Shown: in pieces, positions 14,011 to 58,912 of the stretch
Layout: each line of letters opens with the position of its first letter
Position numbering within the stretch: position 1 is the first letter of the stretch
Source of the DNA: Rhizaria sp. SCN 62-66
Lineage: Eukaryota
Assembly (NCBI GenBank): GCA_001724265.1
Contig: MEDY01000225.1
Coordinates: forward strand, 1-64,000
Reading direction: 5' to 3'
Length of the DNA: 64,000 nt
Program-made: the position numbers and the translations under genes
Notes under the pieces: model-generated
The model's database searches: none
Told to the model about the DNA's origin: nothing
The model's input: only the letters and a program-made list of their open reading frames with translations

Positions 14011-15047
14011 TCACTTCTTGGGCTGCGTGAGGTTCGCGGTGAGCCACGCCATGCCCTCCTTAATGCCCTCGCCGGTGGTGGCTGAGGTGGCGACGACGGA
14101 CCAGGGCCGCGTGCCGCATGCATCGGCCGCGCGCAGCGTGGTCGCGATCTGGACCTTGCTCAGCGCCGTCGGCAGGTCAGACTTGTTGCACAGGATCAGG
14201 ATCGGCACGCCTGCGGGCGCAAGTTCTGCAGCGGGTGGATAGAGGCAGAGTGTGTTGTGGCGTGTGGAACAAAGAAGAGAGACGTAACACAGACAGGAGA
14301 TGACGATAAATAAGGTTTTTGCCGGCAGATGAAGAGAGGTCAGACATAAATCACAAGTTAATAGAATATGACAGTAGTAAGATTATAGACATGGAACACC
14401 AATGTCATGTGGCGATTTGTTGATGTCGTTGTCGCTGCGATTGGACGTACGCGCGGCCTCGTTGAGCTCTGACTCGGCGACGACAACGCGGAGGTGGTCG
14501 GCGGCGTCGATGACGAAGATGAGCCCGTTGGCGTCTGCGAAGTTCTCTTTCCACAGCGTGCGGTACTGCTTTGCACCGGACATGTCGTGCACTACGGGAT
14601 ATGCGAAATGTTGTGAAGCGGGGATTCAAGTGAAGTGAGATGGTGCGAAATGCAGGAGGGTATCAACAGGCGAACTACTAGAGATTCTTATGTCGGTCGA
14701 CGTACCAGTAAGATTGATGCTACCGTAGCGGAACTTCTCAGTGTTAAAGCCAACCGTAGGCACGATGTCATCGACCTGAAGAGCGCGTACAAGGCGACAG
14801 CGAATAAAGAGCGGACATTGCCGAGATAGGCGACGAAAGTGAGTGATTTGCAGCAACAACGGATAGATTGGAAGGAAAGTAGTCATAGAGAAGACCAGTC
14901 ACAGGGCACAGCTACACAACCGCGGGGATAGAAATATAAACGTACACGCTCGCGCTCAGGCTTGAGCTGATTGACAATGGTCGTCTTGCCAGCATTGTCC
15001 AGGCCGATGCAGACGATGTTAGACGGTTTGCTCTTGGCAGAACCCAT
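14011..15047 (-). CDS. ARL6: ARF-like GTPase ARL6/BBS3 (exons 15047-14946, 14775-14706, 14591-14451, 14225-14011)
   Basis: MG start, GLDNAGKTT, IVPTVGF, DMSG (ARL6-type switch II), NKSD and SATTGEG. Three GTACGT introns. Stop is TGA. Confidence 0.88.
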
Positions 15048-15558
15048 GTGCTTCTGAGAGACGCGAGTATAGTGACAAGAAGATATGATTGAGAAAAATA
15101 ATATAGAATATACGGAGATCCGCACTATAAATAGCTACTCAAAGAGTCTGAAACCGTATTAGCGGATGGTGTAGATATTTTGCCTCTCTACAAAACTTCG
15201 GTCGTTCGCTGCTCGCGCGACGCTTGCCGACTGCCCCCAAAATAACGGTTTCGGTATCCCACTTTTCTCAGATCAAATCTGCGACTTCCATTCGTACTAG
15301 GTGACCCATTGCTCAATTTTTGAATTAAACGATAGTTATTTTGCTTGAATCTATAATTAAAATGCTGATCATGCTGATCACGTTTCTCTACACTCCTGAA
15401 CTGATCATAAGCACTGTCTTAGCAAGTGTCCTTTGAAGCTATCACACCCCGAGGCTTGCTGCTGCCATATCCTATATTGTCGCTCACAATTCATCGCACA
15501 TGGTGAAATCTGTTGTTTTATACCTCCCCATTTGTACACCATTGCTTATGTATAGCTA

Positions 15559-25011: not shown

Positions 25012-28000
25012 TCAGATCAGCTCAAAGCCCTCGTCGCTGCCACTGCTAAGCATGGCGCGCACTCCCGGCGCCGCCCCGTCGCCATCCCCGGTCGGCGACC
25101 GGGACTGCGACAGCGCCAGCGACAGGTCAGGCACACTTCGCTCCTGACCTTGCTCAGGCTGTTGCGCCTGCGCCTGCTGCAAGTCTAGCTCGCGCGGCGG
25201 GCGCGAGTGCGACTGCGAGCGCACGTGCGCCTGCGTCGCCCCCTTGGCCTCGGCGTCGGCGCTGGTGCGAGCGGCGCCAGCGTCCGAGTCGGCGGCCGGC
25301 GGCTGCGACAGTGAGACTGACAGCGCGGGCGCTTGTCCGAGGCCCCTCTGTTGCTGCAGCGGCTGCTGCTGCGGAGCCCGCGACAGCGACTGCGCCTGCG
25401 AGAGCAGGGGCGACAGCGACTGCGAGAACGACAGCCCCGTCGCGTCGGACACGAGCTCGAACCCGAGACTGGGGCTTCCGCTCTGCTCAGCGGGAGCGGC
25501 AGCTGAACCGGCGCCAACGCCGGGCCTAGCACCGGCGGCTCGGGGGCTCATGCCAGAGCTGGAACCGGAGCTGATGCTAAAGCCAGAGCTCAGGCTAGCG
25601 CCAGTGCCAGAGCGAGAGTCGGAGCCAACGGGGAACGCAGGCACGGGACAAGGCGCCGCGGGACAAGGCGCCGCGTTGCCGGTGGCAGCCGCAGCGGCCG
25701 CCGCTTGCTGACGTCCCATCTGCACCTGCTTCTGTAACTGCGCCTTCGCCTGCGACTGCGCATGTGCGCCAAGCGACCGCGAGCCGAGCGGCTGGGAGGC
25801 GGGGCTTGATAGCGCGGCGTCGCTGCTCAGCGCAAAGACGTCGCTGCCGTTGGCCAGCGCGTCATCGCTGCCGCCGCTGGCCGCGGGGCCGTCGCTGCTC
25901 GCCGCAAGCACGCCGCTGAGCGTCGCGCTAATCACCGTGGCGCAGTCAGCGTCCCCGTCGGCGTCGCCGCCCTTATCGCTCTCCTTGTCGCCCGAGCCGG
26001 TGCGCCGCGCGGTCAGCGTCGGAACAGGCGCGGCCAGATCGGCGGCGCGGTCCCCTGCGCGGTCCGCGGGGGCGACGGGCGGCGTGACGCTGAGCGCGCC
26101 GTCGAACGGCGAGTCCAGGCCTGCCTCCACCGGCCCGAAGACGCCGGGGAACGCACCGGCGCCGTACGCACCGAGCGGGGGGCTGGCGTCGGACTCGGTC
26201 AGCGTGGCGCTCAGAGACACGGCGGCGGCGACGGCAGCGGAGGCTGCGCCGTCGGTCGTGGGGCTCAGGCCGGAGTCGGCGCGGTGCGAGTCGCTGAGCG
26301 AGGAGGCGAAGAGACTGGCGCCCACGCTCGTGGGTGACTGCGAGTGTCCGTGGGCGAGGCCGTGTCCGTGGCTCTGGCTGTGCACCGAGGGACTGGTCGC
26401 CGCCTGGCTGTGCGTCGACTGGCTGTGCGCTGAGTGACTATGCGCGAGAGGGTCGGAGGACAGGTCCGCCGTGCCCACGGTCGCAGCTGCGTTCATGTTC
26501 GCTATTGCAGCGGCAGGCGCCGTCACTGACGAACCCGCAGTCGCAGTCGCAGCGGGCTCCGTCGCTGCAGCAGATGCTGCAGCGGGTGCCGCAGCAGAAA
26601 CGAAGACAGGAGCGGTGATCGGCACGGGCGCGAGCGTCGCAGCACTGGTCGTTGCAGCAACATGCGCAGCGACAGCGACAGGGGGAGTGCCCGACGACGG
26701 CGAAGTGAGGCCGCGTTGTTGCGGCTGGGCCACACTTCCGCTGAAGTTGTAACCACCAGTGCCGTTGCTGATGCCGTTGCTGTTGTAGCCCGCGCCGAAG
26801 GGCGCCGCGTAGGCGCGCACGTCGCTGGCGTCGCTGAGCCCGCGGCGGCGTGTGGCCACCGGCGGCAGCGGGGGTGTCGCAGCCGCAGCGCCCAGCGCAG
26901 TCATCGCCGTGGCTGCGGCAGTGCTCGATGAGGCGAAGGACAGCGTCGTCGCTGCGGCGCCGGCAGCAGCGCCGCGCGAGCCCGATAGCGGCAGCGGTGG
27001 CGCGCCGCCGCGGGCGCCGCCGCCGCCGTGCTTGGAGGGCGAGCCGAGGGTGCCGGTGGCGGTGCCAGGCACACGCAGTGTGGGCAGCGGCGTTGACGGC
27101 GCGGGGATGCCGACGCTCGAGGGCACGCCGTCCAGCTCCAACTCCAGCTCGGCCTCGGAGGCGCTCCCGAGCACGCTCTCGGGCGCCACCGAGGCGGCGG
27201 CCGCGCGCAGGCCACCGGCGGGCGCAAAGGGAGCCTGCGAGAGGGCCGGCGACAGCGGCTGCACCGGGCCCGGCGACGGCGACGACGCGAGCGCCAGCGC
27301 CAGCGGCTCAGCGGCCAGCGCGGCAAGATGCGCCTGCGGCTGCTGACTCGACTTCAGCGCGGGCGCGGGCAGCAGCGGCGCCGGAGCGGCGGCGGGTCCG
27401 TGTCCGGGTCCCTGCGCGCTGGCAGGGCCGAACCAGTAGGGCGAGGGCTGGCCCGCGGCGTTGATGGGCGGCGAGTCGTCGGCGCTGTTGTCGTCGTCAA
27501 GTCCGCTGCCGTGACCGCGCCCGTGACCGTGGGCAGCGCGACTGCCGGGGCTGCGGATGTGCGCGGACGGGACTTGCGCGCGCGCGCGTTGCGGGCGCGG
27601 GACGCCTGCTGCGGCCGCGGCCGCAGCAGCCTTGGCGGCGCCCGCGCTCGGCCGGCCCGCGCCGCCCGCGAGCAGGTGCATCTGCGTCTGCGAGTGTGAG
27701 TGCGTCAGCGCCTGCGCGCCGCTGTGCGGCACGGGGTCCAGCGCGGGCGTGCCGCTGCCACCGCCGCGCCCGCCGCGCGCAAGGCTCAGCCCCACGCCCA
27801 GCCGCGCCGCGCCGCTGCCGCCGTGGTCGTGGCCGTGGCAGTGGGGCGCAAGCGGCGCGCCGTGGCCGGTGGTGACCGTGGGCGCCGCCGCGGGGGCCGC
27901 GAAGAGCAGCCCCGCGTCGTCGTCGTCGCCGTGGCTGTGCTCGTGGGCGTAGTCGCCGTCGCCGTGCTCGTCGCCGTGGTATCCGTAGTCGAGGCTGTCG

Positions 28001-31000
28001 TCAAGCGCATTCCCGTGCTCCGCCCCGCCGCGCTGACCGGCGTTGGCCGAAGACATCGTGGGCGCATGTCCGTGTGCGTGCGCGGCGCCGATGACGCTGC
28101 TCGCAACCGCGGCGCCGAGTCCGTGGCCGCCGGCGTGCGCGTAGTCGAAGTCCGAATGGCTGTCCAAGTCGCCCACGGCGCTGCGCCAGTCGAGCTCGAA
28201 CGCGCTGTCGGCGCCGCGCACGTGTGCCATGTCCTCTTCTTCTTCCTCCTCCGCGTCCGCACCGGCGCCAGTGCCGCGCGCGCGGCCGCTGGCGAGGCCG
28301 CCGGCATGGCCGCCGTGGACGACGCTGTGCGCGTGCGCTGCTGGGGGCGCGCGTCCAAAGCCGAAACCGTGGCCGTGCGCGGCGACGGGCACGATGATCG
28401 GGGCGGCGTTCGCCGGCACGACAATAGCGGCGACGCCGGTGTCCGCATTATTCGCGCTGCTGCTAGTAATGTTGTTGTTCGCGTTGTAGTAGTCGGCGAT
28501 GTCGCTGTGCGCGTACTGATACACCCCGTTGTACTGCTGCTGCAGCGGCACTGACTGCTGCTTAGGCAGCGACTGCTGCTGCGTCAGCGTGAGCGAGGCC
28601 GCCGACCGCAGCAAGTCCATCGCGGGCGGCGCCAGCGCGAGCGGCAGCGCGGACTCTGCTCTCGCGTCGGCGTCGGCGTCGGCGTCAGCGGCACCGTTGC
28701 TGGGGCCGAATAGGGGCGTCACGAACGGCAGGCTTGCAACATCGGCCTCGGCACTGTGCTGGCGCTGACGCTGTTCCTGGGCAATTGCAGTCGCAGCGGT
28801 GCGGCGCGGAGGCTGCGACTTCGCATGTGCCTGCACGAACGCGGGAGCAAGCGAGGACGACTCAGCGACGCTGAGGGCGAGGCCACCGGGCACAAATCGA
28901 GCAGGTGCATGGTGCGCAGCAGAAACAGCGTTGGCAGCTGCCGCGGAAGCAAGCACGGGGCCAGCCAGCGTCACGACTGGCGTCATCGCCGCGCCCACAA
29001 TCACTACATTCCCAGACACACTGGCGCTGCTACTGCTGCTGGTGTGGGTAGGCAGCGCGTCTGTGCTAGCCTCGGTCGCTGTCGCTAGAGGGGCAGGCTT
29101 GGCGACAGAAAGTGAGAGCTCGTTCACATGAGGACTGCCATCGTTGCTGCTGCTAACAGCTTTGCTGCCATCGTCCGCGTTTACGATAACAGAGCCCACG
29201 GCTGCGCCTTCCACCGCGATTAACTACACTTGATGACGCTACAACTGCTGCTGCTTCTGCTGTTGCTGTTGCGGCGGCTGTTGCTGCGGAGCGGGGCGCA
29301 CCGAGCCCGCGGACATGACTGAGAGCGCGAGTCCGCCGGGCGCACCGAAGGCACGCGGCTGGCGCTGCTGCTGCTGCTGCTGCTGTTTCGCCTGCGTCTG
29401 CGTCTTCGCCGCCGCACCCGACGCCGCAGCGAGCGCCGTGGGTGAGGCGGCTGTGACCGCAGCGGCGATCGCAGCCGCCACAGTCATGTCTTCGGAGGCG
29501 TCTGGCGAGGCGGGCCGCGACATGTCGACGCGCACGCCCACGGCGCACTCGAGCGCGTGGCCGCACGCGCACTCGCACTGCGCAGCGCTGCCCGCCGTGG
29601 TCGCGTGCGAAGCGGACGCAGCCGCGCAGCAGCAGCCGGGGACCGCCGCGAGCGGCGCGGCGGGAGCAGGGTCCACACCAGTCGCGGCCGCGACGACGGA
29701 GGCCGCGATGGGCGAAAAGGGCAGCGCAGCCGCCGCAGTCGCGTTTGCAGGCGCAGGCGCGGTCACGCCGGCGTTGGCGTTGTGCGCGGCGGCGAACGGG
29801 GCAGCGCTGCTGGCGCGAGCGAGCGAGGTCCCGACGCCAGAGTTGGCGCCGCAAGCGCCGACACCATTCTCAGCCGCCGCAGTGACCGCAGCAGCCGCGT
29901 CACAGTTAGTTGCGGCGCCATTGCCCGTACCGGCGACCGGCGCGCGCGACTGCTCTGCAGCGTTGTGCGCGGACACGGCGAGACCCGCGTGCGCAGCGGT
30001 GGCGGCGGACATGGTCAGCGACGTCGTGAGCGTAACGGTGCGCCGCGGGGCCGTCTTGAAGGCGCCCGCGCCGCCCGAGGCCACGATCGCGGCGGCCGCG
30101 GCGGGATCCACGCGAGGACCGCAGCCCGCAGCCGCCGCAGCGACGGGGGCGCCGCTGTCGCCCATGCTATCGCTGTCGCCGTCGCCGAGACTGTTGTTGT
30201 TGCTCCGGCCGGCGCCCGCGCCCTGTCCGTTGCCGTTGCCGTTGTCGTGGGTGAGGCCGTACAGGAAGCCGGGGCTGGGGGCCGCGGAGGGACCGAGGCT
30301 TGCGCGCGAGGTCCGGTGGCGGCGCACGCCTGAGGCCAAGCCAGCCCCGCTCCCGCTACCATTTGCGGGCTCGGCGCCAAAGCCAATGGCAGATCCAGCA
30401 GTGGCAGCGGCGGCAGCGGTCGGCGCGGGCGTCTGCGCCGTGGCAGGGGCGATGCCGAGGACCCGCCCGTGACCGTGGGCGCGGCCGTTGGCGTGGTTGA
30501 GGCCGTGGCCGGCGGAGACGATGGGCAGCACAACAGTGCTGCTGACGCCGCTGACGCCACTGTAGTGGCTCGCGGCGGGGCTGTAGTACGACCCGTCTTC
30601 CTGCTCGCCGTCGTGCTCACGGTCAGCCTCGCGACCGAGCTCTTGCTGGTCCTGCGCGGGCACATTCGCAGACGTAACATTCCCGGCGTTCTCGACACGG
30701 GCGTCGCCGGCGACACCAACTCTGAGCCCAAGGCCGAGTCCGGTGTCGTGAGCGTTGTATGCAATGTTGTTGTTGTTCGCCGTTGGCGGGAGCACGCAGA
30801 TCGTGGAGGCCGTCTCGCCCTCGCTGTCAGCCCACCGCGCCGCGCCCTCCAGTTCGGACGCCGTGATCGACTCGCAGTAGCCACGCGCGCGCACTGCACC
30901 CGCGTCCAGGTTGGACCCAACTTGGGCGCCGACGGTCGCGCTCGCGTCGGGCATAGCTGCGTTGCCGTTGCTGCTATCGTTGTCCGAGAAGATGCGCGCA

Positions 31001-33131
31001 ATGTTCGCGTAGGCGGCTTCATCATCGTCGTCGACATCGACGTCAAACGCAATTCGGCCACCATTGCCGTTTCTAACAGTTGCAGTATTCGGGCGACCGT
31101 TTCCGTTCGCGTTGGCCTGCCTCTTTGCACTAGTATTATTGCCGGCAGTGTGGGCAGTCGCGAGGTGCGCGAACGGGTTTTGCGCGTCACCATCGAGACT
31201 GCGCCGGGGCCCATGCACCCCGTGTCCGTGACCGTGGGCGTGGGCGTGACTGTGCGCACTGGCTGTACCGGCGATACCCGTGCCACCGTGGTCGCGGTCA
31301 ATGCGCTGCTCACGGTCACGTTCGTGGTAGCGGGCGCCATCGGCAGACTCGCCGTCGCCGTGCTGCTGCTGCTGCTGGGTGTCGTGGTAGTGCTACTCGT
31401 GCATGATGACGCTGTGCGCCTGGCTGTGGCCGAACTCGCTGCCGCTCTCGCCGACGCCGTCACAGTAGCCGTCGCTGTCGCCGCCGTGCCCGAAGTCGCC
31501 GTCGCCGTCGCCCGCAAGGAACTCGCTCGGCACGTCCGTCAGCGAGCAGCCGGGCCCGCCGTCGCCGAGGCCGAGGCCCAGTGCAGCGGCGCCGCCGTGG
31601 CCCGCGGCCGCTGGGTCGCGGCCTACGAGGACGAGACTCCCTCTCCCGCCGCCGCCGCCGTTGCTGTTGCTGCACGCGCTGGCGTTGACGCCCGTGCTGC
31701 GCTGCAACGACCGCAACTGCAACGTGTTGGCGTCTTCGCCACCGCCATAGCCCAGCAGCGCGTGGACGCTGCCGGCGCGGGGGACCGCGCCCCCACCGCC
31801 GCTGCCGCCGCTGCCGCTGCTCACGGTCGTCGTGGCCGCGGCGGCTGCGGAGGCCGCCGGGGGCACCTGCGGTCCAAGGCCCGCGTACTGGCTGGGGCTG
31901 CCCGTGTAGGTGGCCGCGCCGACGCCGGCCGAGGCGGGCCGCGCCGGGTACGCTGCAGACTGCGACTGCGGGCTCAGCGACTGCGGCCCCTGCGGGTGAG
32001 TCTGTTGCTGACTCTGCAGCTGCTGCAGCTGGCGCTGGCGCTGGTAGCTCTGCGCGGCGCGGCGCGCGTCGGCGTAGTAGTCGTCGCTGCTGCTCCCGCT
32101 GCCGTCGGCGTCGTTGCCGTCGGCGTTGCCGCTGTTATTGAGGCTGCCATTGCCGGCGGCCGCGGCGTGCTGCCGCGCCTGGCCGTAAGAGGCCAGCGCC
32201 GAGAGCCGGTTGGACATCTTCTGCAGCAGGTCCTGAATGTGCGCGTCATACCCGCTCTCCACCGCCGCGGCGTCGCTGTTGCTGTTGTTGCCGTTGCCGT
32301 TCGCTTGCGCGCTGTCGTCGGCGTCGCTGTAGGCGTTCGCGAGGGGGTTCACGGTCGTGCTGCTGGCGCGGGCGCGGGCGCGCGTGTTGCGCGAAGCCCG
32401 GCCGGCACCGCTGTTGGTGCTGTTGGCCCCGTTCAGACTGCCCGTGCAGTCGTTGGCGCTCGCGGTCGGCGGGAGGCCGAGCAAAGAAGACGAAGGAGCG
32501 AACGCGCCAGTTGTCGCAGCCGCCGCGCCAGCGGCAGCAGCTGGGCCCGTGCCGCCCAGCTGAAGACTCAGACCAAGCGTGGCGGCCTTGCGGCGGTCCG
32601 CCTCGTTGTCCTCGCAGTCGTCCTCGTCCTCGTCGTCGCCGCCGCGGCCGTGCAGGTAGTGGCTCTCGCTGTGAGTTTGGCTGCCGGCGCCGCCGTGGCC
32701 GTGGCCGGAGCCGTGGAGGCCGTGGCGCGGCGCAGCGCGCTCGTCCTCGTCCAGTGACAAGCCGCCATCGTCGTCGGTAAGCAGTGCTGTGCTCGGGCAG
32801 AGGGTCGAAACGGGCGGAGACCGTTGACAGTGCGGGTGATGAGAGAAGGGTCAAGGCAGGCAGTAAAGGAGAAGAATGCGAGTTGTAAAGGCAAATTAGG
32901 GGATAGGAGAGCATCGACAGACAAATAGATACAATATGTACGCGTGCTCACGGTACTGCTATTGCGATTCCATGAACGATATTTGTGTTGATATCTCGCA
33001 TCAAATGTGCTTGTGTGCGTAGACGTACGGTCGATTGAATCGTCCTCATCGGTGCGCGCGACTCCGCGACGGCGATGAGCCAGCGGACAGCACCAACGTG
33101 CGCACCAGCAACGCGCAAGCCAACCGCTCAT
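25012..33131 (-). CDS. Very large (about 2650 aa) low-complexity protein with three in-frame TAG codons (exons 33131-32942, 32786-25012)
   Basis: ORFs 32760-31393, 31218-29239 and 29214-25012 share one frame and are separated only by TAG (31393-5, 29239-41, 29224-6). A phase-1 GTACAT..CAG intron adds a Cys-rich N-terminal exon. Stop is TGA. Confidence 0.72.
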
Positions 33132-33915
33132 GACGCAGAGAGGACGGAGGCGGGGCGGAGCGGAGATAAAAGACGGGGGTCTGCGTAGAGTCGAGCAGGG
33201 AGGAGCAACCAGAGATTGGGTCAGAAGGAGGCGACAGGAAGGAAAGTCGGGTTTAGTGAGGCGTCCCAGGAATAATAGTTCAGAAATGTGTTTCATGGTC
33301 ATGGTCAATATCGGAATCGGTCTTAGTACAAACAAATCTGCTCATGGCGTTGTGCTATAGCGAACAAAAACAACTGACCACACACCGATTTTTTGGCTAC
33401 ATTAACCCCTGCGACGTTGCCAATTCGATCGTCAAAAAGATTGCCACAGAGGATATAATTAGAAAGTGGCGCGTAAAACTGTGTGACTTATATGGCTGTA
33501 AAAAAACATATCCCATTGTCGTTCAGACTGTCGCATACAAACTGATTTCTTGTCTATTGAGTCAAGCGCGTCTACCCACGGTCGCCGAAGGTAACACACT
33601 TGGCAGAATATTTCGTTGGGGTGTTCTCTGTGTTCTCAACGTCATATTCGATTTTACGATTGATACTGTTTTTCATCATCTATATAATCTTGTATGCATC
33701 AATATTTATTTTAAAATTGCCGAACTGCTGCTACAGTGCGTACTTTTACGATCTCTCATTTGTGTGCTGTTCTGCAACGGCTTCTTCCCCAATTAAATCC
33801 GCTCTAGCTCCTTGCAGTCGTAATCTTTAATAATTCGACACGCTGATCAGAGTGTATTACTGAATTTTAACCTATTGATAGCACACCCGATTGGCTCTAC
33901 ACCTTGTTACTCAAC

Positions 33916-36377
33916 ATGTCAGGTACGTTTTCGTTTCCAAGCATTTGCAAAACTTTGGTCGCTTTCAAACTTCCCTCTCCCTTACCATGATGACTACTTG
34001 CGCTTTGATCCTCCACAGCCCCCGCGGTCCCCATTCGCGTGAACGTGTCGAGTAGCGCGGCCGCACCCGCAGTGCCCCATCGCTCCGTGAACTCGCCTAC
34101 CTCCAAAGAGGCTCCCACTCCCTCATCTTCGACAGCAGCTGCTGCGTCTGCGTCGGGCCCTGCAAACGATGACACGGCACCCTCGACCCACGCGCCCGCG
34201 ACGAGTTCTACTGCGGAGCCTGTGAACACTGTGGCCGCAGGCACCGTGTCGCCGACGACGCCCGCGACGCTGCAGCTGCGCCCGCGCGGCGCGCTCAACG
34301 GCCAGATCTTCGACCTGTACACGCAGTCGCAGTTCGACGACTGCCTGCGCCTCATCGACCGCGCGCTCGCGCTCCCCACGCCGCCCAACTCGCTCTCCAC
34401 CGGCGCCGGCGCTGCGTCCGCAGCGACCGCGGCCGTGGCCGCGGGGGTGACGGCGACCGCGAGTTCGCCCGACGTGAGCGCCATGACGAGCGGCGTGCTC
34501 TCATCGCCCTTCACCGCGCCGGCCGCGGTCGACTCGGATTACCCGCTCTTCGTGCGCGGGCTAATCTTGCGCCAGCGCGGACAAGTTGCGCGCGCGCTGG
34601 AGGCGTTCCAGGCGGCGCTGCGGCTGAACCCGCGCTCGGCCGACAACGCCAAGCACGTTGCGCGCTGTCTATACTTGTTGGGCCACGTACCGCGCGCGCT
34701 TGAGGTCTACGACAAGGTCGTTGCCATGCTTGGTGGCGCGGCAGGCGCGGCCGCGGGCGACGCTGACGTGCTGCTCGGCGTCGGCGAGTGCTACATGCGC
34801 CAGGGCCGCTTTGCCGAGGCCGCCAAGGTGCTGCGCGACTCGATCGCGTAGCGGCCCAGCGACGCCGCCTACCTCGCGCTATGCCAGGCGCTCACGCTCG
34901 GCGGCGACACACCCGGCGCGCTCCAGGCGCACACCGACGCGCTCGACTTCAGCCCCGAAAACGCAGAGGTACGTTCGCAGCAGTTTGAAATATGTTCAAT
35001 TTACCCATCATCCATTCTCACAATCTCTCATTATCACACACTCACACATCTCTTTCTTGTCTTTGCATTGCTTTTTTCTCATCACACAGCTGCTGACCCG
35101 GCTGGGCGCTCTGTACCTGCGCGCGGGCGCGCCGCGTCAGGCGTTTGACCTGCTGGGCACGGCGCTGACGCATGTGCCCGAGCACGCAGAGGCGAACTTC
35201 GCCGCCGCAGCAATCACGCTCCAGCACAAGGAGTTCGACGCTGCGCTGCTCAAGTACCGGTACGCTTTGTGAATTGTCCACCTGATTATTTGTGTAGGAT
35301 GCGTAAAAGTCATCGGAAAAACACAAAACTATTTTGTTCTTGTACTTATGTCTCATTGTCATTCTGTCGTTCTATTGTTGTCCTGCGCATTCTTACAGTG
35401 TCGTTGCGCACGCTGACCCTGACAGCGCCGAGTTGTGGACGGATATTGGTCTGTGTCTCTGGGGCAAGGGCCGCGCTTCTGCCGCGGCGGCGTGCCTCAA
35501 CCGCGCGCTTTTCATCTGCCCCACGCTGTGGTCCGCGGCCTACAACCGCGCGCTGGTGGCGCTGACGGCCGCGCAGTACGCCACGGCGTGTCACCACCTC
35601 ACGGCCGCAGTCGCGCTCAATCCCACGCACGCGCCCTCGTTCGCCGCGCTCGGCGTCGCGCTTGGCCGCATGGGCGATGTGACGAACGCGTCGGCGGCGT
35701 ACGACCGCTCTCTGCGTCTGGCGCCGCACTCGGCGCCAGTGTACCTCAACTACGCCGCGATGCTGCTTAACGCCGCGGCCGCGGACCCGGAGACCGCGCG
35801 CAGCGCCGGCGGCGCGCTAACACCCCAGGAGACCAAAGCCGCGGCGTTGTGGGACCGCTACCGCTCGCTGTTCGCCACGGCGACGGCGGCCGCGGACGCC
35901 GCCTCTGCATCTGCCTCAGCCGCCGCGGTGCGTGGGTCCGGCGCTGCGGCTGCGCCCACGGGGTCGCCCGCCGCGCTGGCGGCCGCGGCGCTGGCGCCCT
36001 ATTCGCGCGCCGAGATTGAGCTCACCGCACAGCAGGTCGCGACTGCGCTGCAGCACGCGCGCGGGCGTGCCGCCGCCGACGCTGCGGTCGCCGCGGCCGC
36101 CGCGGGCGCCATGGCCGCCAACAGCAGCTCGCCCGGCGCGCCCGTAGGGCCGCACAGCATGATGCCCGCGCCGCCACAGACGCGCGCTACGCCCGCTGCG
36201 CCGCCGCGCCCTGTCAAGATCAGCAGCGGCGGCAGCGGCAGCGGCGGCGGCAGGCACTCGAACGCCCTTGAAGACAGCTTCGAGGCTGACAATAACAAAG
36301 CCGGTGGAGGGCTGCCACCGCCGGTGCTGCGGCCGCCGCCCAGGACTAAGCCCGAGGAAGACGATGCTGCAGTTTGA
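33916..36377 (+). CDS. BBS4: BBSome subunit BBS4 with an in-frame TAG at 34849-34851 (exons 33916-33922, 34019-34968, 35090-35259, 35399-36377)
   Basis: YPLFVRGLILRQRG, ALRLNPRSADNAKHVARCLYLLG, ALDFSPENAE|LLTRLGALYL, AFDLLGTALTH, FDAALLKYR|VVA and SAELWTDIGLCLWGK match the BBS4 TPR series as I recall it. Stop is TGA. Confidence 0.9.
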
Positions 36378-36718: not shown

Positions 36719-39700
36719 TCAATCATATGTTTCAGCAGCACCGTAGCCACCTCGAAACCCCGCTGAGAGCGCGGCCGCAGAGGCCGCAGCCGCAGCCGCG
36801 GCAGCCGCAGCCGCCGCAGAGGAGGACGGCGACGCTAACAGGGCCTGGCGCTCCGAAGCGCGGCCTGCGTACTCAGCCGCGCCGGCGCCCAGCGAGCCCG
36901 CGTGATAAATGTCGCCGCCGTCGTCATCGTCGTCGTCACCGCTCACGCTCTGGCTGCTGCCGCGCGTGACGACCAGCGGCGTCGCGCCGGGCCCGCGCGC
37001 GGTGAGCGAGAACGCGCCTCCCGCGGCCGCCGCAGCGTCGGCGTCGCCTGCCCAGCCGCCGCCGGCGCCCCAGGTGTCGCTGTTGCCGCTGCTGCCGCCG
37101 CTGCTGCTGCCGCCGCTGCTGCTGCCGCCGCTATTGTTGTTGTCGCCGCTGGTGGTCGGCGCCGCGGTCGAGCCGCCGTTAAGGCTGCTGCAGTCGCCGG
37201 CCTGGTAGAACGCACCGCTGTCGCTACCATTGTAGCTGTCAGCGGCAGCGTCGTCGCCGCAGTTGCTCTCCGTGCAGGAGCCGCTGGCGGCGGCGCGGGG
37301 GCGGCGCACGAGGCGCGAGAGCAGCAGCGTGGCGGGCGAGCGCACCGAGTGGCCCGCCGCGCCCAGCGCCACGCAGCCGCGCGCGATGATCGCCGCGCCG
37401 CTGTGCGCGCCGACCGGCGAGGACCCGGGGCAGTTGTCGGCGTCGGCGTCGCAGCAGTCGGCGCGAGAAGGCGAGCCGGGGCTGCGCGGCGAAGCGATGG
37501 GGCAGCACGGCGCGGTCTCGCAGCACTCAGCATCACCGCCGCTCCCAACGACTTGGCCCCTGCTCGTGGCGCCCGCGGCGGTACCGAGGTGGTCGCCGTG
37601 GTTGTTGGCGCTGTAGACGCAGATGCCCGCGACGGCGATGGCCCACGCGGCGGCCACGCCGGCGCCCGCCAGCAGCGTCAGCACCCAGTAGTAATCGAGC
37701 GCCTCCTTGAGTGCGTCGGCCTCGGCCGCGGACAGCGCGACGCCGCGCGCGGTAGTGTTAAACGAAACGGACGGCGCGCGCGTGCGGGAGGCGCCGCGCC
37801 GCGCCTTGCCGCCGCGGCCCGCCTTGGCGTCGGTCTCAGCGCCAGACTCTACAGCGGCATCTGCAGTAGCAGTGATGGCGCTGTCCGTATCGACCTTGTT
37901 CTTTGACTCGGTGTCGGTGGCAGCACCAGCGACTACGACGGCGTCGACGTCGTTCTCAGTCGCGACAACAAACGCAGCATTGGCGGCGTCAGCGGAGGCG
38001 CGCGCGGCGGCCTTGGCCTTCGTCGCGAGAGCCTGCTTGCTGGCGCGCACAGCGGCGAGCGCGGCGGCCGCGGCGGCGTCAGCGGCGGCCTGCGCCTCCC
38101 TGGCCTTCGCCGCCAGCGCGCCAAGCTCCGCAGCCTCGTCAGCAGGGCTGCCAGCGGCGGCACCGGCGCTGGTGCTGGGGGGCAGGTGCAGGTGCGTCGC
38201 GAGGTCGGCGCGCGCGGCCGCGGCCAGCGCAGCGCGGCGGGCCTCGGACGCCGCGGCCGCGGAGGCGCGCGCCGCCCTGGCCACTGCGGCGTCCAGCGGC
38301 GAGTCCTTGCTCTCACTTTTGCTGTCATGCTCGCCGTCACTGCCGGCGTCCGCGCCGTCTAAGGGGTACTTAGCGTGGTCGAGCGGGGAGAGCAGGTCGA
38401 GCGCGCGCTGGTGCTCGGCGCGGGCGAGCCAGTCGGGCGAGATAGCCCAGGGCAGCAGGTTCACGTCGTGCACCATGGCGCCCAGTGCGAACGTCACGTC
38501 GGTCCCTGACAGAGAGCGCACAAACGTCACCGTGGGGCCGCTCTGCGCCTGCGCGCCAGGCTGCGCAGCGTCCGCGCTCGCAGTGCTACTGCTGCTGTTG
38601 TTGTTGTTCGAGGCAGGCGCGTTGCCCTTGTTCGCGGTACTGGCGCCAGCGCGCGGCTCGAGAGGGATGCCGATGCCGTCGTGGAGCAGCGCGACAGTGT
38701 AGGCGGCGAGCCAGCAGTAGGAGCGCAGGTAGTACTTGTTGGCCGTGGGGTAGCGCCGCAGCAGCTCGGCCCAAGGTACGGCGCAGAAGTCGCGGCCCGC
38801 GCGCGCGAGGTCCGCCAGCGAGGCGTCGGCGGGCAGCCCGATGAAGTCGGGGAAGTAGGAGAAGCCCGAGAAGGCGTAGAAGGAGCGCACCTCGGCCAGC
38901 GGCGGCCGGTACAGCCCGAAGAAGGACGTGCACTGGCCGGGGAACGGCGACGACAGCGACTTGGTCTCCGAGTGACACGGGCCGGTCAGGCTGTGCAGCG
39001 ATATGCGAATGTGGGACAAGAATAGAGGAGAGAACCGATGTGTGAGTGACATGTGGAATTGTGCGAGATAAATTAGAGATAAGCCTGGACATTTTTCGAG
39101 CATTATTGTTACGCTACAAGGCAAGTTGCTCGTAATCTGCGTTACTGTGTCGCCGTACCGTGTGTTGACAAGCTCCGTGGCGAGCGCGTAGCAGCGGTCA
39201 AAGTCCGCCTTGCCCTCGACCACGACCTCGAGCTCCTCGCTGTCGTCGTAGTCGGAGTCGTCGCCGCCGCCGCTAGCGTTGGCAGCAGCGCTGCCACCCG
39301 CGGCGTCGCTCGTTGCGGCCCTCGCCGTCTTCGCCCGGCCGCCGCTCTCGTCGCGCACCGGCCGGATGGGACTCGCGCCCGCAGCGTCAGCGTCGCTGTC
39401 GTCGTCGCCGACGTCGACGCCGCGCGCGCTCTGGCCCGGGCGCCCCGCGCCGCCCTCCTTGACGGTCACGGGCACCCCGCCACCAGCACCACTCCCACCA
39501 CCACCACCAGCAGCCGCAGCAACGCCATGGCTGCGGGGGCGGCGGCGCAGCGGGTGCGTGGCGGCCAGACCCATGGGCCCGGGGCCCAGGCGCGGCAGCA
39601 CGCCCGGCGCGTACACGGCCTCGTACCCCGTCGGCAGGCACGGCGACTGGAACACTGGGTCCAGCTCGGCCTCCGCCCCGTCACTATGGGCCCCTGCGTC

Positions 39701-42600
39701 GCTCGGGGCGGACTGGCGGTCGTGCCAGGCGCGGTGGCCCGGGCGCGCCGCCAACTCGGGGTGCGCGCCAGATGATTTGGCCACCGGGTCTGCGCCCACC
39801 CCGTGCGGCGCGCCAGCGCCAGCACCAGCACTGGCACTGGCACTGGCATTGGCAGTGGGACTCGTAGCGTCTTTGTTGTTGCTGACACTGGCACTGTTGC
39901 TGTTGTAGTTGCCGGTGTCGATGTTCTCGTCAGCGTGGTGTTTATGGTCCGCGCGCGTCGAGTTCACCGGCAGCGTCCACTCGAACGGCACCGCAGGGTG
40001 CTGTCGCGTCTGCTTGCGCGCGCGCTTCGCCGCCTTCTCGCCGTCTTTGTCGAGCTCCCCAACACCGACACCGGCAGCGCTGTCGTCGGCACCGGCGCCG
40101 GCGTCGGCGCTGGCCTCGGCAAGCGCAGCCATGGCGGCGGCCTGCTGGCGCGGCGCGAGGTCGTAGTAGCCGCGCGGCAGCCCGTAGGCCTCGGGGAAGG
40201 AGCGCGCGAAGAGCACCGAGTGCAGGCGCCACAGCGCGGCGTCCTTGCCGTAGTACCAGAAGCACTCGACGTAGAGGCGGTGGCGCGTGTAGGCGAGCTG
40301 CAGCGGGTACTGGTGTGCGAGCAGCGCCGTGTGCGCGGGCGGCCGGAACGTCAGCTGCATGCTCGCGCCGCCCAGGTCCAGCACGGCCACCGTCTCGTCG
40401 CCCTCGGCCCCGCTGTCCGCGTCCAGCCCCCAGACCGCGCCGCTGGCGCGGGCACCGGAGCCGCTAGCGCCAGCGCCGCGGCTAGCAGACGGCTGCTGTG
40501 TGCCGTTCGCGGTGAGCGGGGAGAGCGCGGCGACGGCAGCCGAAGGGTCAGCGCCGGCCGCGGGCTCGGCCCAGAAGAGCGTCTTGTTGGAGAGTAGGTA
40601 GTTGACAGTGAGCCAGCCGAAGACGCCCTCTTCCTCGCCGCTGATGACGGCGGCGTAGGCCGCGGGGCGGAAGCGGAAGCCCGTCGTGGCGAGGTACGCA
40701 GAGACCTCGCGCATCACGGCCTCGCGCGCGCCGTCGGGCAGCCCGCGCATGCCGCCTGTCGCCTGCGCGTGAGCAGCAGCAATTACAACAATAAAGGACC
40801 AGGATTAGTTATATGAGACAACCGTTGGAGTGCAAATAATAGAATATAACCGTCCGTAGAAGTAACATAGCGCCAATAAGAGAATACATGCAATTTCATG
40901 TTTCGTGACAGTTATTGCAGTGTTTGCGCTGCAGAGTGTGCGCGCCACGCGTACCTTGAGGTAGATGGGCGTCTCGGGGATCTTGGCCTCGACGCCAACC
41001 TGGCGCATAACGGAGATGACGAAAGCGACGAGCGGGCGCAACGCCTCAGCCACGCGCGCGGGCGCGGCGGCGTAGTCGCTGAGTCCGGGCATGGTCTTGA
41101 CGGACCAACCGGGGAGCGTGTCAGGCCGCGAGAAGGGCCGCCGCGGCGCCGGCGAGGGCGACGACAGCGACGAGTAGAGCGTGCGGATGCGCGGGTGCCA
41201 ACGGTAGAGGTACGCGCGCGAGCCCGTGGAGCCGGCGTCGATGAGCACGCCGTAGTGGTACTGGTGCGCGGGCAGGATCTCGGTGCCTGTGTGGGGAGGC
41301 GACAACAAAATAAATTGTGAGACAGATTGAGAGAATAAAGTAACATGACTGATTGAAGCTATAACATTGAGAATGACATTGAAATGGTGCGTTTGGTTTT
41401 AGATGATTGACAGGTGATTGATTAGCACCACGTACCGATACGGCGCTGGCGCGGGTAGGCCTGCAGCATCGACGCTGCGTCCTCCGTCGCCCCGCCCTTG
41501 TACAATGCGCCACTGGCACTGCCGCTGGAGCCGCCTGCGACAGTGGCGGAGCCGTTGGCGCCCACGGTCACCTCGGGCGGCGCGGCCCACCAGTCGCCGC
41601 TCCAACCCTGGCCCTTGGTCGTGGCCACGCCGCCGCCGCCCGTGGTGCCTGCGGTGCCCGCGGCGACCGCAGCAGCCGCGGCGGCGGCGGCGGTGTCGAG
41701 CACTGCGAGCGGCAGCAGCGGCGGGAGCGCAACCGCGGGTGGCGGCTTCGTATAGCCATCGCGGTCCAGCGCCGCCACGGGCACCGGCGACACCAGCACC
41801 GACCGCGGCACAGCGCGGCTCTTGCCGGCGTCGACACCGCCATCGTTATCGTCGCTGTCGTCGTCGTCGTCGTCGAGGTCGCTGAAGGTGTCGCCGAAGT
41901 GCGTGCTGTCGCCCTCGTAGTCCCAGTCCCAGCTGCTCGCGCCGCTGCCACTGCCGCTGTCGGCGTTCGCGTTTGCAGTGTCCGCGTCCGCGTTCAGGTT
42001 GGTGTTCATGAGCGGCGGCGGAGGGAGCTCAGAGTACTTGACCGTGTAGCCCTGCGCCTGCAGCGACTGCGCCGCAGCGCGCGCCACGCCGGACGCCGCG
42101 CGCCGCGTCAGCCACTTGGTCGGCGCGCCCGCCGATGCAGCAGCGCCGGCGGCTGTCGCACCCCCGTTGCTGCTGCTGGCCTTAGTCTTCTTGATCGCAT
42201 TACGCTGCTTCGTGAGAGGCGTGGCGGCGGCAAATGAGCTGGTCTCAATGAGTTCAACGCGCGGCAGCGATGGTGGGGGGCGGGTGAAGTAGCGCCGGCG
42301 CAGGTGAGTGCTTCCAACCGCATCGTTGGCGGCCGCGGCGGCAGCGCCAGCTGCAGCTGAGGCGGTGTCCTTGACGGTGTCAACAGCCGCAGCAGTATCG
42401 TCGGGCGGCAAAATCGCGTGCGCACGGTTCAGCATGCGCATGAAGTAGTCGCCGACGTCATCAGCGCGCGCCGTAGGCAGCAGCGTCGGCGCAGTGGTGG
42501 CAAGCGCGATGGCCAGCCACAGAATCGCAAGCATGCGGTGGTTGCGACGCTGGTGCGGCGGGACTGAGCACGCAGCGTGCGCGACTGCGCGAGGTGGCAT
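36719..42600 (-). CDS. GDA1/CD39-family NTPDase (apyrase), about 1790 aa (exons 42600-41436, 41286-40955, 40762-39159, 38990-36719)
   Basis: Apyrase conserved regions DAGSTGSR, ATGGMR (across a splice), ISGEEEGVFGWLTVNYL, DLGGASMQ, FYAFSGF and VTFALG. Hydrophobic segments near the N-terminus and in the C-terminal part. The start may instead be ATG 42534. Stop is TGA. Confidence 0.88.
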
Positions 42601-43053: not shown

Positions 43054-46000
43054 TCATCCGTAATGCACGATCCCTCTTGACAACGACGATGGTGGTTCTT
43101 CGCGCACTGTGGCCGCCGCAGCTGCGGCAGCCAACCCTGCAACTGACTGAGCGTGTGGTGTCATGCCCACAGCCACACTAGGCGGTGTCTGAAAGAACCG
43201 ATGCCCCCCAGTCCGCTTGCCCACGGCTACTCCCGCGGCGTCGCTGTTGCTGTTGATGCTGGTGGAGGTGGAACGTACAGTGTCGAGTGTGCGTGCGCTA
43301 GGACGCTCACTAGGGCTCGCAAGAGCAACAAAAGTTGTAGTCGCCGCGGTGTTCTGGGGCGAGCGCACGTGCGTTTGCGTGAACGGATCCTCATATTTGT
43401 TCTCAACAGTTTGAGGGGCAGTGCGGTTAACATAAGAGCTATTCCGATTCCCACTGTTGTGAGCGTAGGGACTCTGCAACATCTTACTAGGGACAGCAAT
43501 GTTTACATAGCAAGGCGTGCTTGATCGCGCTTGTGCTTGTGCATGCGTGTGCGTGTACGCGTGCGCGGGCGACGGCGACGCAAGCTGCAGAGCGCGCGGC
43601 CGCAGCGGAGTCCAGCCGTCACCTTCGCCCGCGCCCGTGTCCGCGTACGTCTCCGCGCACGACTCAGCGAGCGGGTCCGTCACTGTCGCGTTGCCGATCG
43701 ATGCCGCGGGGGCGACGGTGGGTGCCGGCAGCGGACTGAGCTCGGGTCGCGGCGCTGCAAACGCGATGCCCCCGTGACTGCGATGCCGGGTGTCGTTAGT
43801 GACATCACCGCTCTGGTGGGTTCCATCGTACGCCCTGCGAGCGCTTCTCGCTGTTGCACCAGCGGTTCCACGCGGCGCAAAGGCAGACGAGCCCGAGGCA
43901 AAGGCAACAGGAACTGCTGGAACAGCCGTGATGGGTGACGCGACGCGGACTGAAAATGCATCTTGGCCATCTGTCGCGTGGTGAGGACTAACGTATCTGT
44001 TCATGGTGTGTGCGTGCAGACTGCTGACAAACGCGTTGGGGCGTTCAGGCTTGAACGCCGACGCGGGGATAGGCACTGGGGCAGGTGCAGGTGTGAAGGC
44101 GTAGTTGGTGACAGTTGCTCCAGTGTGAGTAGAGAAAAATCGATTAGGGGTTTTAAATAACGCTTGATTCGACCGTAGCTCATGCTGTTGAAGTGAGGGT
44201 TTAAGCTGTTCTGTCAACTGCGGTGTAGAAGATTCTGGGTAGATGCGTGAAGAAAAAAGATACGGTTCATCAACATCCGTAGATTCAATCCCATTTGCAG
44301 CAACGGGCGCGGTGTACACTGTCTCACCGCCACTGTGCTCCGAAGCATTTTGACTTGCACCAGCCTCCGCGTCACTTCGTGAGAATGAAGCACTCTCCAG
44401 TTGACACTCTTCTTGCACGTTCCGCCGGTCCAGCTCGCGCTCTTGTTGTTCCCACCAGTGCTGCCACACAACGCGTCCCTGCTCCTCGGCAGCGGCGCGG
44501 GCATCCGCAGCGCCCGACGCGGCCGCCGCGCGCACCGCCGAGCCGACCTCGCCGGGGCGGGTCGTGGCCGCCAGCGCGCGCGGCGTGCGCAGCCCGCGCT
44601 CCAGTGACGCCACCAGCGGCCTGCTCACAGCTGCCCCGCCCCGACCACTCGCGTCGAAGGTCACTTGGCTTTCAGGCACAGGCCAAAACGCGGAGGCGGC
44701 AACAGCCGACGTCACACCGGCAGCGGCGGTGGCGGCTAGCGCGCGCGCGGCTGCTGCGGACGCCTCCGCTGCAGCCGTGGCGGCAGCGGAGTCGCCGCCG
44801 GCCAGCGCAGCGGCAACGGCCCGGTTCGCCCGGTCCAGCGCGTGGTGCCGCGGCGACAGGTACACGGCGTCGCGAGCGCCGCGGCCGGAAGGGCTCGCGC
44901 TGCCCGTGAACTGTCTGTTGAGGTGCGAAAGCGGGCTCGTACGCGACGGCGGCGGCAAAACCTCTGGACGCGCACGGAGTGACTCCGCGTACACTGACCG
45001 CGAGCGGGGGTCGTGGTACGGAGACAAATACACCACGTTCGCGCGGTGGCCTGGCCCGAAGCCATGTTGTACGCCAAGATCAAGACTGTCGCCGTCAATG
45101 TTGTCGTGATTCGCGACTGTTAGGTCTTGATGTCCCCAAGGCAGCTGCGGACCAATATCGCTGCAAACAGCTCTTCCTTGAAGGTGGGTGTCATTTCCAG
45201 ATTCATTAAGCGAACTATTCTCGATTCCAGCGGCTTTGCTGCGGTGCCAGCGACTGTTTGCAGGCAAGCCTGCGACCGCACCCACAAATGCATGGCTCGA
45301 AAAGAAGTTCGCTGCGTTGCCATCATCATCCAAGCCGATATGATCGACGCCACAACCAAGAATAACACCTTTTGCATCAACATCATCGTCGTTGTGGCCG
45401 ACATTGTGGTTTCCAGCGCCACCGTGATCGTGGTCATCATCGCTAATACTGTCGCTGCCACTGCCATCAAAGTGACCATCAGCGCGCCGGCGCAGACGCT
45501 TGATCTCAACAAGACGTTGCTGGCGGCGTTCACGATCACCCTGATCGCGCTCCTGCTGCTCTATCTCTTGCTGCAGACGTCCCTCGCGCCCGTGCGCATT
45601 TACGGCGTCTGCATTACGCACGTAGCTCTCGGACGACGCCAAGAACGTCGCTGCGGCTGCAGCAGCGTTCGCTCGCGCTTCAGCATCAGCCGCCTCCGCC
45701 TCGGCAGCTGCATCGGCCTCAGCCTCGGCGAGCCCCTGTGCCCAGTCTGCGTCCAGCAGCGCCGCCACCGCGGCAACCGCCGCGGCGCGAGCGCGGGCCG
45801 CGGCGGCCGCAAGACGCGTGTAGTGCGCGCCCGCTGCCGCACACGCACGCGCGACCGCGTTCACTGTCCCCGCCGCGCTTGCCTGCGCGTTCGCACCGAC
45901 GGGGGCGGTGAGCGCGACAGAGACCGTGGGCGCTGCGGACGCGGGCGACTGCGGGCCGGCTGACACGGAGACAGAGACGTGCGCGGGCGAGGGTGCGAGA

Positions 46001-48636: not shown

Positions 48637-48959
48637 GAGGCGCACGCAAGGCTGGTTGTTACTTGCCTGGGGTGAGATCGACAAACGAGTGCAGGAGAGC
48701 GGGAACGCAAATTCATAGGGTATTATTAGAATATAATCTGCAAATCCACGGTTTAGAAACAATATTCAAAGTATGTATCTCGCAACGGATTTTACACCGA
48801 GACTCATTCAATCAAAGAACAAACACCAAGACCCGACGAATCTGGACCTCCTTCAACGAATACATATTTCCTCGGATTACAGTGGCCCTATTCATGCAGT
48901 AACCAGTCAAACAAGCTCAACATATAAATATAACAACCACACCTTTCTTAGTGAAGCTA

Positions 48960-55067: not shown

Positions 55068-55104
<37 letters not shown>

Positions 55105-55319
55105 TGCCGCAGTCGGCACTGACGGCGCCGGCGGAGAGGGCGCCGGCCAGGATGGAGGCTGGGGTTGGGATTACCGCAACAACGAAAGCGGCGATGGTTT
55201 CGGCCACGGTCACGGTGGCGGTTCAAGTGATCGCGGTCACGGTGACGTTGACGTGTACGATGCTAACAAAGGCGGTGCACACTACGACGACGACGACGAC
55301 GACGACGACAATGGTGTTC

Positions 55320-55382
<63 letters not shown>

Positions 55383-58878: not shown

Positions 58879-58912
<34 letters not shown>

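Follow-up and report, generated by a model that had tools for sequence, protein, structure and literature searches.

An in-frame TAG within a BBS4-like gene and the probable use of TAG as a sense codon in a contig of Rhizaria sp. SCN 62-66

The BBS4-like gene and its in-frame TAG

The first 64,000 nucleotides of contig MEDY01000225.1 from Rhizaria sp. SCN 62-66 (GenBank assembly GCA_001724265.1), the whole of which is called the window here and is numbered along its forward strand, contain a gene predicted to encode a protein similar to BBS4. The gene model has 4 exons and 701 codons (33916-36377, +), and codon 280 is an in-frame TAG (34849-34851, +) in the context GCG TAG CGG. The original prediction, made from the sequence of the window, stated that this TAG stands in frame after KVLRDSIA and is followed by a GTACGT intron, and the letters and the exact coordinates agree with it: the peptide reads ...KVLRDSIA-TAG-RPSDAAYLALCQALTLGGDTPGALQAHTDALDFSPENAE, with GTACGT at 34969-34974. 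The predicted length of the spliced product, 701 codons, was likewise reproduced by the exact exon model, the features of which are as follows.

33916-33922, +, exon 1: ATG TCA G, with GTACGT next, joining exon 2 in frame
33923-34018, +, intron 1: 96 nt, GC 0.45, GTACGT..CACAG
34019-34968, +, exon 2: low-complexity N-terminus and tetratricopeptide repeats (TPRs); contains the TAG
34849-34851, +, in-frame TAG, codon 280: end of helix B of a TPR (the A-L-x-L-x-P position)
34969-35089, +, intron 2: 121 nt, GC 0.38
35090-35259, +, exon 3: TPR
35260-35398, +, intron 3: 139 nt, GC 0.37, GTACGC..TACAG
35399-36374, +, exon 4: TPRs and an Ala-rich tail
36375-36377, +, terminator TGA

The three introns have a GC content of 0.37-0.45 and follow the pattern GTACG(T/C)...ACAG, and the exons have a GC content of approximately 70%, with a GC content at third codon positions (GC3) of 0.83-0.86. 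The 421 codons on the 3' side of the TAG contain no TAA, no TGA and no further TAG, and with the stop density found off frame in the window (438 in 22,668 codons) the chance of such a stop-free run is approximately 3e-4. No consensus splice donor was found within 300 bases upstream of the TAG, in keeping with the earlier claim that no splicing event would remove it. In public records, gene callers have stopped the protein at the TAG, giving a product of 206 amino acids (P0001) versus the 701 codons of our model.

Homology and fold on both sides of the TAG

Pfam scans detected TPR matches in all three large exons (TPR_2, 2.4e-18, in exon 2; TPR_19, 4.4e-05, in exon 3; TPR_2, 1.3e-12, in exon 4). 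When exon 2 was compared with the PDB, BBS4 was the best natural match (E 1.4e-20 and 4.2e-20, against 1.5e-15 for O-GlcNAc transferase, OGT), query residues 173-316 being aligned to residues 67-203 of the bovine chain (6vbu_4) or 76-212 of the human chain. For exon 4, BBS4 was again the best natural match (E 2.7e-28 for 6xt9_D and 5e-27, against 2.3e-19 for OGT), query residues 2-156 being aligned to residues 270-419 of 6xt9_D, and the match reached chain residue 509 of 519. The match is collinear (chain residues 67-203, then 261-509); only engineered consensus TPR proteins stood above BBS4 in the ranking, and OGT came after it. It had been proposed that homology to BBS4 ending at the TAG would speak against translation through it, and what was found is BBS4 as the best natural match on either side.

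The fold points in the same direction. The 154-residue TPR part of exon 2, with the TAG entered as L and with an alignment of 14 relatives, was modelled by AlphaFold with a mean pLDDT (the per-residue confidence measure) of 92.2, and the first-ranked Foldseek match of this model was 6vbv_4, which is BBS4 from the bovine BBSome (E 3.3e-08; template modelling score 0.83; root mean square deviation, rmsd, 1.5 A over 142 columns with 33% identity), although such a ranking by fold is a weak discriminator by itself, with designed TPR proteins and OGT close behind. The residue encoded by the TAG is the last of the model helix 102-115, in a block with a pLDDT of approximately 98, and the alignment to the 14 BBS4-like proteins is ungapped there. 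On these comparisons of sequence and predicted structure, the gene is BBS4-like, and its homology extends across and well past the TAG, which falls in the middle of the repeat array.

The likeness to mammalian BBS4 (PDB 6xt9 chain D and 6vbu/6vbv chain 4) consists of the TPR solenoid, collinear over residues 67-509, of an identity of approximately 33-35% and an rmsd of 1.5-1.9 A over the exon-2 part, and of the position of the TAG, which is occupied by Leu in the mammalian proteins. The predicted protein of the window differs in its length of 701 residues with a low-complexity N-terminus of approximately 160 residues, in the internal TAG, in an Ala/Gly insert within the TPR array and in the Ala-rich tail.

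The TAG in other assemblies and in RNA

Three bioreactor and wastewater metagenome runs cover the window nearly completely, and further runs cover parts of it. Over 3154 of 3154 bases, the TAG included, a separate metagenome contig (L001) was identical, and a DNA contig of run X3 over 29891-35435 showed no difference and retained the TAG. A contig of run X4 over 34736-35488 also retained it, with four differences from the window (34812, 34962, 34973 and 35242), to which a second X4 contig added a difference at 34131. Each of the four exonic differences is synonymous and falls at a third codon position, and two of these four lie downstream of the TAG; the remaining difference is in an intron. 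In the intergenic stretch upstream of the gene the X4 strain showed 16 differences in approximately 1200 bases. The TAG is not an assembly error, because it is identical in the contigs L001, X3 and X4, one of which represents a slightly diverged strain. Furthermore, the gene looks to be under selection, to judge from its substitutions, because all four exonic strain differences are synonymous. The original prediction had held that the remainder of BBS4 is intact, a view consistent with these synonymous differences, the open frame downstream and the homology past the TAG. A metagenome scan with exon 4 recovered L001, which is identical, and five distantly related TPR loci (25-32% identity), and no close relative.

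RNA evidence came from run X6, a polyA metatranscriptome of activated sludge, in which letters 96-416 of a 416-nt contig lie on 35088-35408. The first 95 letters were placed at approximately 34873-34967 by means of the difference at 34962 (a single X6 contig, at the same depth, with the difference 5 letters from the end of the piece). From the record coordinates, intron 2 appears to have been spliced out in this RNA, the joint itself falling outside the 15 of 346 matches listed. Both differences of the X6 contig within the gene, 34962 and 35242, are strain differences rather than the outcome of editing, because the X4 DNA contig carries them as well. Intron 3 (35260-35398) is kept in the X6 contig, where a TGA enters the frame after 4 codons; this may represent a partly processed transcript or intron retention.

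In-frame TAGs across the window

In the likely coding frames of the window (11,334 codons) we counted 10 in-frame TAGs, no TAA and no TGA, the zero for TGA being partly by construction, since open reading frames (ORFs) were delimited by TGA, and the zero for TAA being a free observation. The other two frames of the same segments contained 74 TAG, 59 TAA and 305 TGA. With two segments added, the count became 12 TAGs in 11,509 codons, or approximately 1 per 1000. Frames free of TGA extended over 2612, 1903 and 1769 codons, and with TGA making up 1.3% of off-frame codons such lengths are not due to chance. The TAG of the BBS4-like gene was proposed to be the only one in a recognisable conserved domain, and indeed it is the one site among the 12 whose protein has known relatives. 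The remaining 11, and one TAG of uncertain meaning, are listed below.

31393-31395, -, in-frame TAG in the 2612-codon low-complexity ORF 25012-32850
29239-29241, -, in-frame TAG in ORF 25012-32850, kept in the X4 strain
29224-29226, -, in-frame TAG in ORF 25012-32850, kept in the X4 strain
47164-47166, -, in-frame TAG in the 1903-codon ORF 43054-48765
46306-46308, -, in-frame TAG in the 1903-codon ORF 43054-48765
57082-57084, +, in-frame TAG in ORF 56509-57249, then 54 open codons to a TGA
58018-58020, +, in-frame TAG in ORF 57340-59028
58840-58842, +, in-frame TAG; GC3 stays at 0.85 over the next 33 codons
60538-60540, +, in-frame TAG in the ORF that starts at 59818 and runs off the window
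62227-62229, +, in-frame TAG in the ORF from 59818 running off the window
62890-62892, +, in-frame TAG in the ORF from 59818 running off the window
58942-58944, +, TAG of uncertain meaning; GC3 falls from 0.85 before it to 0.59 after it, with a TAA 27 codons on

All 12 in-frame TAGs lie in a local GC content of 0.49-0.76, with coding-like open frames on both sides, and for 9 of the 12 no GTA[CA]G donor was found within 300 bases upstream. Two of the 12 adjoin poly-Q runs. The ORFs that contain the other TAGs gave no Pfam family; a homologue search with ORF 56830-57246 returned only itself, and no PDB relative was found for this ORF or for 62602-63321. Self-BLAST of 151-nt stretches at 10 of the 12 sites found no paralogous copy. 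No RNA over the three TAGs of ORF 25012-32850 was present among the pieces listed. This ORF (-) is without a known domain and evolves in a near-neutral manner, yet it is free of TAA and TGA. Three in-frame TAAs of ORF 36719-42028 were also considered as sense codons, and this was dropped, as they lie in AT-rich dips that resemble introns.

Terminators of conserved genes

The ends of eight genes could be anchored by homology, a small sample, and comprised three TAA (PACRG, L31e and L29/RPL35), five TGA (the ARL6-like gene, BBS4, PP2C, DnaJ and SNAP) and no TAG. In addition to the TGA of the BBS4-like gene given above, the following were located.

1386-1388, -, TAA terminator of PACRG, 5 codons past the end of the Pfam ParcG domain
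7605-7607, -, TAA terminator of ribosomal protein L31e, anchored by homology
9536-9538, +, TAA terminator of ribosomal protein L29/uL29 (RPL35), anchored by homology
14011-14013, -, TGA terminator of the Arf-family (ARL6-like) gene, anchored by homology

Seven further ORFs end in TGA without an earlier TAA, and their ends are defined by the ORF alone.

TAG as a probable sense codon

The most probable reading of these results, and one in which we place considerable confidence, is that the window is written in a nuclear code in which TAG is read as sense, with TAA and TGA as the stops. This reading accounts for the intact BBS4-like gene, for reading frames that are interrupted by TAG and by no other stop, for the anchored terminators free of TAG, and for the retention of the TAG between strains. 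The claim of the original prediction that the TAG is translated within BBS4 is supported by the homology to BBS4, the lack of a consensus donor upstream, the synonymous strain differences, the 12 in-frame TAGs and the absence of TAG among the eight anchored terminators. Under this code, the window would be a nuclear contig of an uncultured eukaryote with cilium genes, present in bioreactor, wastewater and activated-sludge metagenomes, in which TAG would serve as an ordinary sense codon, TAA and TGA would end translation, and codon 280 would be translated to give a full-length BBS4 of 701 residues.

Several observations weigh against this reading. All but one of the 12 TAG sites lie in low-complexity or orphan ORFs, the 11 being spread over five ORFs, and the conserved genes without a TAG amount to approximately 4,200 codons, in which approximately 3.7 TAGs would be expected at the mean rate, so that the use of TAG is uneven. 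In ORF 25012-32850, 9 of the 12 strain differences are non-synonymous, indicating that this ORF is weakly constrained. The lack of in-frame TGA is in part built into the count, as noted above, and the TAG at 58942 may, judged by the change in composition around it, be a terminator, the only candidate TAG terminator in the window. Among the RNA pieces listed, none spans the TAG of the BBS4-like gene, the X6 contig beginning approximately 22 bases past it. Moreover, the 64-kb window contained neither a tRNA gene nor an eRF1 gene and gave no Rfam match, and the decoding mechanism is wholly inferred. Finally, the assignment of leucine, which is discussed next, comes from one column, in which the commonest residue is Ile. 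The evidence base as a whole is 64 kb of DNA with 12 TAGs, one of which is informative.

The residue probably encoded by TAG

An exhaustive protein search listed 150 proteins, of which 14 were used for the column at the TAG (291-621 amino acids long, with the best stretch covering nearly the whole query); the self match and 135 others, mainly long multi-TPR proteins, were left out. In the 14 relatives the column contains I in seven, V in two, and L, M, F, A and K in one each, and in human and bovine BBS4 it is Leu. With these two included, I, V, L, M or F occupies the column in 14 of the 16 sequences, and Q, E, Y, S and W in none. In a profile of the 14 relatives the emissions of the hydrophobic residues were 0.21 for I, 0.15 for V and 0.124 for L, and those of others were 0.043 for K, 0.040 for S, 0.026 for Y, 0.022 for E, 0.021 for Q and 0.008 for W, a preference of Leu over Gln of approximately 6 to 1 in profile emission at a single informative site. 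The other repeats of the BBS4-like protein have L, F, H, L, L and I at the equivalent TPR position. The original prediction had pointed out that the TAG coincides with the hydrophobic residue of the A-L-x-L-x-P turn, which would favour Leu over Gln, and the column bears this out.

The anticodon CUA is one change away for the tRNAs of Leu, Gln, Lys, Glu, Tyr, Ser and Trp, and is not for those of Ile and Val; among the seven reachable residues, Leu suits the column best. Leucine is favoured over glutamine because the column is hydrophobic in BBS4 relatives, with Leu in the human and bovine proteins, and we regard leucine, on this alignment, as somewhat more probable than all other residues together, and glutamine as rather improbable. 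These two estimates weigh the column against the frequency of Gln among known cases. If TAG is leucine, it would supply 12 of 828 Leu codons, or 1.4%.

As for the mechanism, we infer that a tRNA carrying CUA as its anticodon would pair with UAG and not with UAA, and that an eRF1 with a weakened recognition of UAG would act alongside it. If the residue is Leu, the tRNA(CUA) could derive from tRNA-Leu(CAA) by one anticodon change, which would be feasible because leucyl-tRNA synthetases generally ignore the anticodon. A tRNA(CUA) together with a weakened recognition of UAG by eRF1 has been argued for other UAG-only codes (PMC5304391).

Alternative explanations

One alternative is that TAG is a sense codon with a meaning other than leucine, namely Gln or another residue within one change (Glu, Lys, Tyr, Ser or Trp). 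Gln is the commonest meaning of a reassigned UAG, and it is combined with UAA as a stop in Iotanema (PMC5304391) and in two phyllopharyngean lineages (PMC11687900). Two of the 12 TAGs stand beside poly-Q runs, and one BBS4 relative has Lys and one Ala at the column. However, none of Q, E, Y, S and W occurs in any of the 16 BBS4 sequences, Q is emitted at 0.021 versus 0.124 for L, and the other repeats of the protein have L, F, H, L, L and I at this position. We regard this alternative as possible but unlikely.

It is also conceivable, if quite improbable, that TAG has a dual meaning or is partially read through, either in an ambiguous code or by suppression by a near-cognate tRNA. The rarity of TAG, its absence from conserved and probably highly expressed genes, and the fall of GC3 at 58942, where the TAG could be a true terminator, would all agree with a dual meaning. 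On the other hand, none of the eight anchored terminators is TAG. Leaky read-through would leave little full-length product with 12 internal TAGs and up to three in one gene, and the TAG of the BBS4-like gene closes a TPR helix midway through the array and is not near a natural C-terminus. Ambiguous codes of the Condylostoma or Blastocrithidia type were rejected, since these require two or three of the stops in frame, and the window has TAG only.

Removal of the TAG from the RNA, either by excision of a 24-nt in-frame GT..AG stretch (34828-34851) or by editing, would be formally compatible with the letters, as such a stretch is bounded by a GT (34828-34829) and by the AG within the TAG itself, and with the RNA pieces listed, which leave the site uncovered. 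Nevertheless, the four introns that were measured are 96-146 nt long, and the 24-nt stretch is 4-6 times shorter, is GC-rich and would have the donor GTGCTG instead of GTACG. Excision would delete eight helix residues that are aligned ungapped to the BBS4 relatives, the differences seen in the RNA contig are also present in X4 DNA, and each of the 11 other TAGs would require an event of its own. Such an explanation is highly improbable.

A pseudogene or nonsense allele of BBS4, with the other TAGs as real stops in mis-joined ORFs, is in our view still more improbable, even though gene callers do terminate the product at this codon (P0001). Four assemblies, a diverged strain among them, have the TAG fixed, and all exonic differences are synonymous; the 421 downstream codons are open over three exons with splice signals kept; the downstream intron appears, from the record coordinates, to be spliced in polyA RNA; and the frames of the window are interrupted by TAG only, never by TAA or TGA. 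Programmed read-through of a single gene was rejected because the TAG falls within the TPR array, at codon 280 of 701, and because 11 further TAGs occur in five other ORFs.

Other genes of the window and the organism

Pfam scans identified, besides BBS4, genes for PACRG, a PUB-domain ORF, an adjoining PP2C ORF (the two are possibly one gene), alpha-SNAP, GDA1/CD39, DnaJ/DUF1977, an NPHP3-like TPR protein, an M23-like protein, L31e, L29 (RPL35) and an Arf-family ARL6-like protein. Several very long low-complexity ORFs in the window are without known relatives. PACRG (1386-2354, -) matched ParcG with E 8.3e-80. The Arf-family gene (14011-15101, -) matched Pfam Arf with E 8.3e-22, and its best PDB match was 4v0k, which we take to be Chlamydomonas ARL6, with ARL3 and ARF scoring almost equally. 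The TPR protein at 15400-17868 (+) gave a weak NPHP3-TPR match (E 8.5e-05) that is below the Pfam cut-off. Its gene content predicts that the organism builds a cilium or flagellum, because four cilia-linked genes (PACRG, the ARL6-like gene, the NPHP3-like TPR gene and BBS4) are found within 64 kb.

A protein search with PACRG found a best non-self match with 98% identity (P0164) and many with 85-91%, mostly environmental proteins. P0164 comes from a 1.1-kb contig of the Joint Genome Institute and may stem from a closely related organism or from a strain of this one. A scan of genome contigs with PACRG gave 119 stretches, none of which was confirmed.

The genes for L31e (7605-8020, -) and L29/RPL35 (8938-9538, +) are arranged head to head, approximately 900 bases apart, and each has a GTACGT intron and ends in TAA, whereas most other genes of the window end in TGA. 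Tracts of poly-Q, poly-A and His/Gly/Asp-rich sequence are common in the window. Long runs of one amino acid also lie within ORFs of high GC. Between 20700 and 20900 more than 30 Asn occur in the M23-like ORF, and an ORF that overlaps it on the same strand, in a different frame, reads these bases as Thr; approximately 20 Asn occur at 55300-55400 in ORF 52889-56158. At 36798, in the tail of the GDA1/CD39 gene (-), contigs of all four runs compared carry a variant that lacks 3 bases of a GCN-repeat (poly-Ala) tract, to which contigs of other organisms may contribute.

Significance and comparison with known codes

Nuclear codes in which UAG and UAA differ in meaning are rare, PMC5304391 and PMC11687900 naming a single rhizarian, a single fornicate and a few lineages of ciliates. 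If our reading is true, the window would add an independent case to the study of stop-codon capture, in which either the gain of a tRNA(CUA) or a change of eRF1 may come first, and would show a state soon after codon capture, with exons of approximately 70% GC, TGA as the main stop and a very low use of TAG. Because standard gene callers cut proteins at TAG, the proteome of this organism in public catalogues would be fragmented. It is possible, though we hold it as doubtful, that UAG became leucine independently here, in a flagellated eukaryote of wastewater reactors that is GC-rich, is not a ciliate and closes most of its genes with TGA, and that it has been caught early in codon capture when TAG is used approximately once per 1000 codons and is avoided in conserved, highly expressed genes. 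A literature search that left supplements aside found no GC-rich non-ciliate protist or wastewater eukaryote described with UAG reassigned.

Among the nearest known codes is that of Rhizaria sp. exLh (Sainouroidea), in which UAG is Leu and UAA and UGA are stops (Panek et al. 2017, PMC5304391). For exLh, 384 in-frame UAGs in 71 genes were reported, with UAA as the terminator in 56 and UGA in 15, and UAG was scarce in ribosomal-protein genes and was the commonest Leu codon in proteasome genes (PMC5304391). The window resembles exLh in that only UAG appears reassigned, with UAA and UGA as stops (56 and 15 of 71 in exLh; 3 and 5 of 8 in the window), in that UAG is absent from the window's L31e and L29, as it is scarce in the ribosomal-protein genes of exLh, and in that the hydrophobic, Leu-like TAG column fits UAG as Leu at its one site. 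It differs in that UAG is abundant and UAA is the main stop in exLh, whereas in the window TGA predominates among the stops and TAG is used approximately once per 1000 codons.

In the uncultivated phyllopharyngean ciliates UAG is Leu, and in Hartmannula and Trochilia it is Gln (McGowan et al. 2024, PMC11687900), so that Leu is represented by a single lineage and Gln by two, UAA being the preferred stop; two of three phyllopharyngean genomes with UAG as Leu contained suppressor tRNA genes (PMC11687900). As in the window, UAG alone is reassigned in the nuclear genome, and the evidence comes from metagenome-derived assemblies. These organisms are, however, ciliates that prefer UAA, whereas the window mainly uses TGA, yielded no tRNA in its 64 kb, and represents a 64-kb multi-gene stretch with exons of approximately 70% GC and AT-rich introns of 96-146 nt. 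Iotanema spirale (Fornicata), with UAG as Gln and UAA and UGA as stops (PMC5304391), shares the reassignment of UAG only, but at the one informative column of the window not a single one of the 16 BBS4 sequences has Gln. Codes with UAR as Gln (NCBI table 6), which are found in many ciliates, Dasycladales and hexamitids and also in Amoeboaphelidium (PMC5304391, Fig. 4 legend), share TAG as sense and TGA as stop; such a code was rejected for the window since TAA is sense in it, while here TAA ends three anchored genes and does not occur in frame in the approximately 11,500 codons counted. Different amino acids for UAA and UAG have also been reported in a ciliate (PMC10553269). The code of the window would thus be a further case among the rare known UAG-only reassignments, distinct from them in its low use of TAG, its use of TGA as the main stop and its exons of high GC content.

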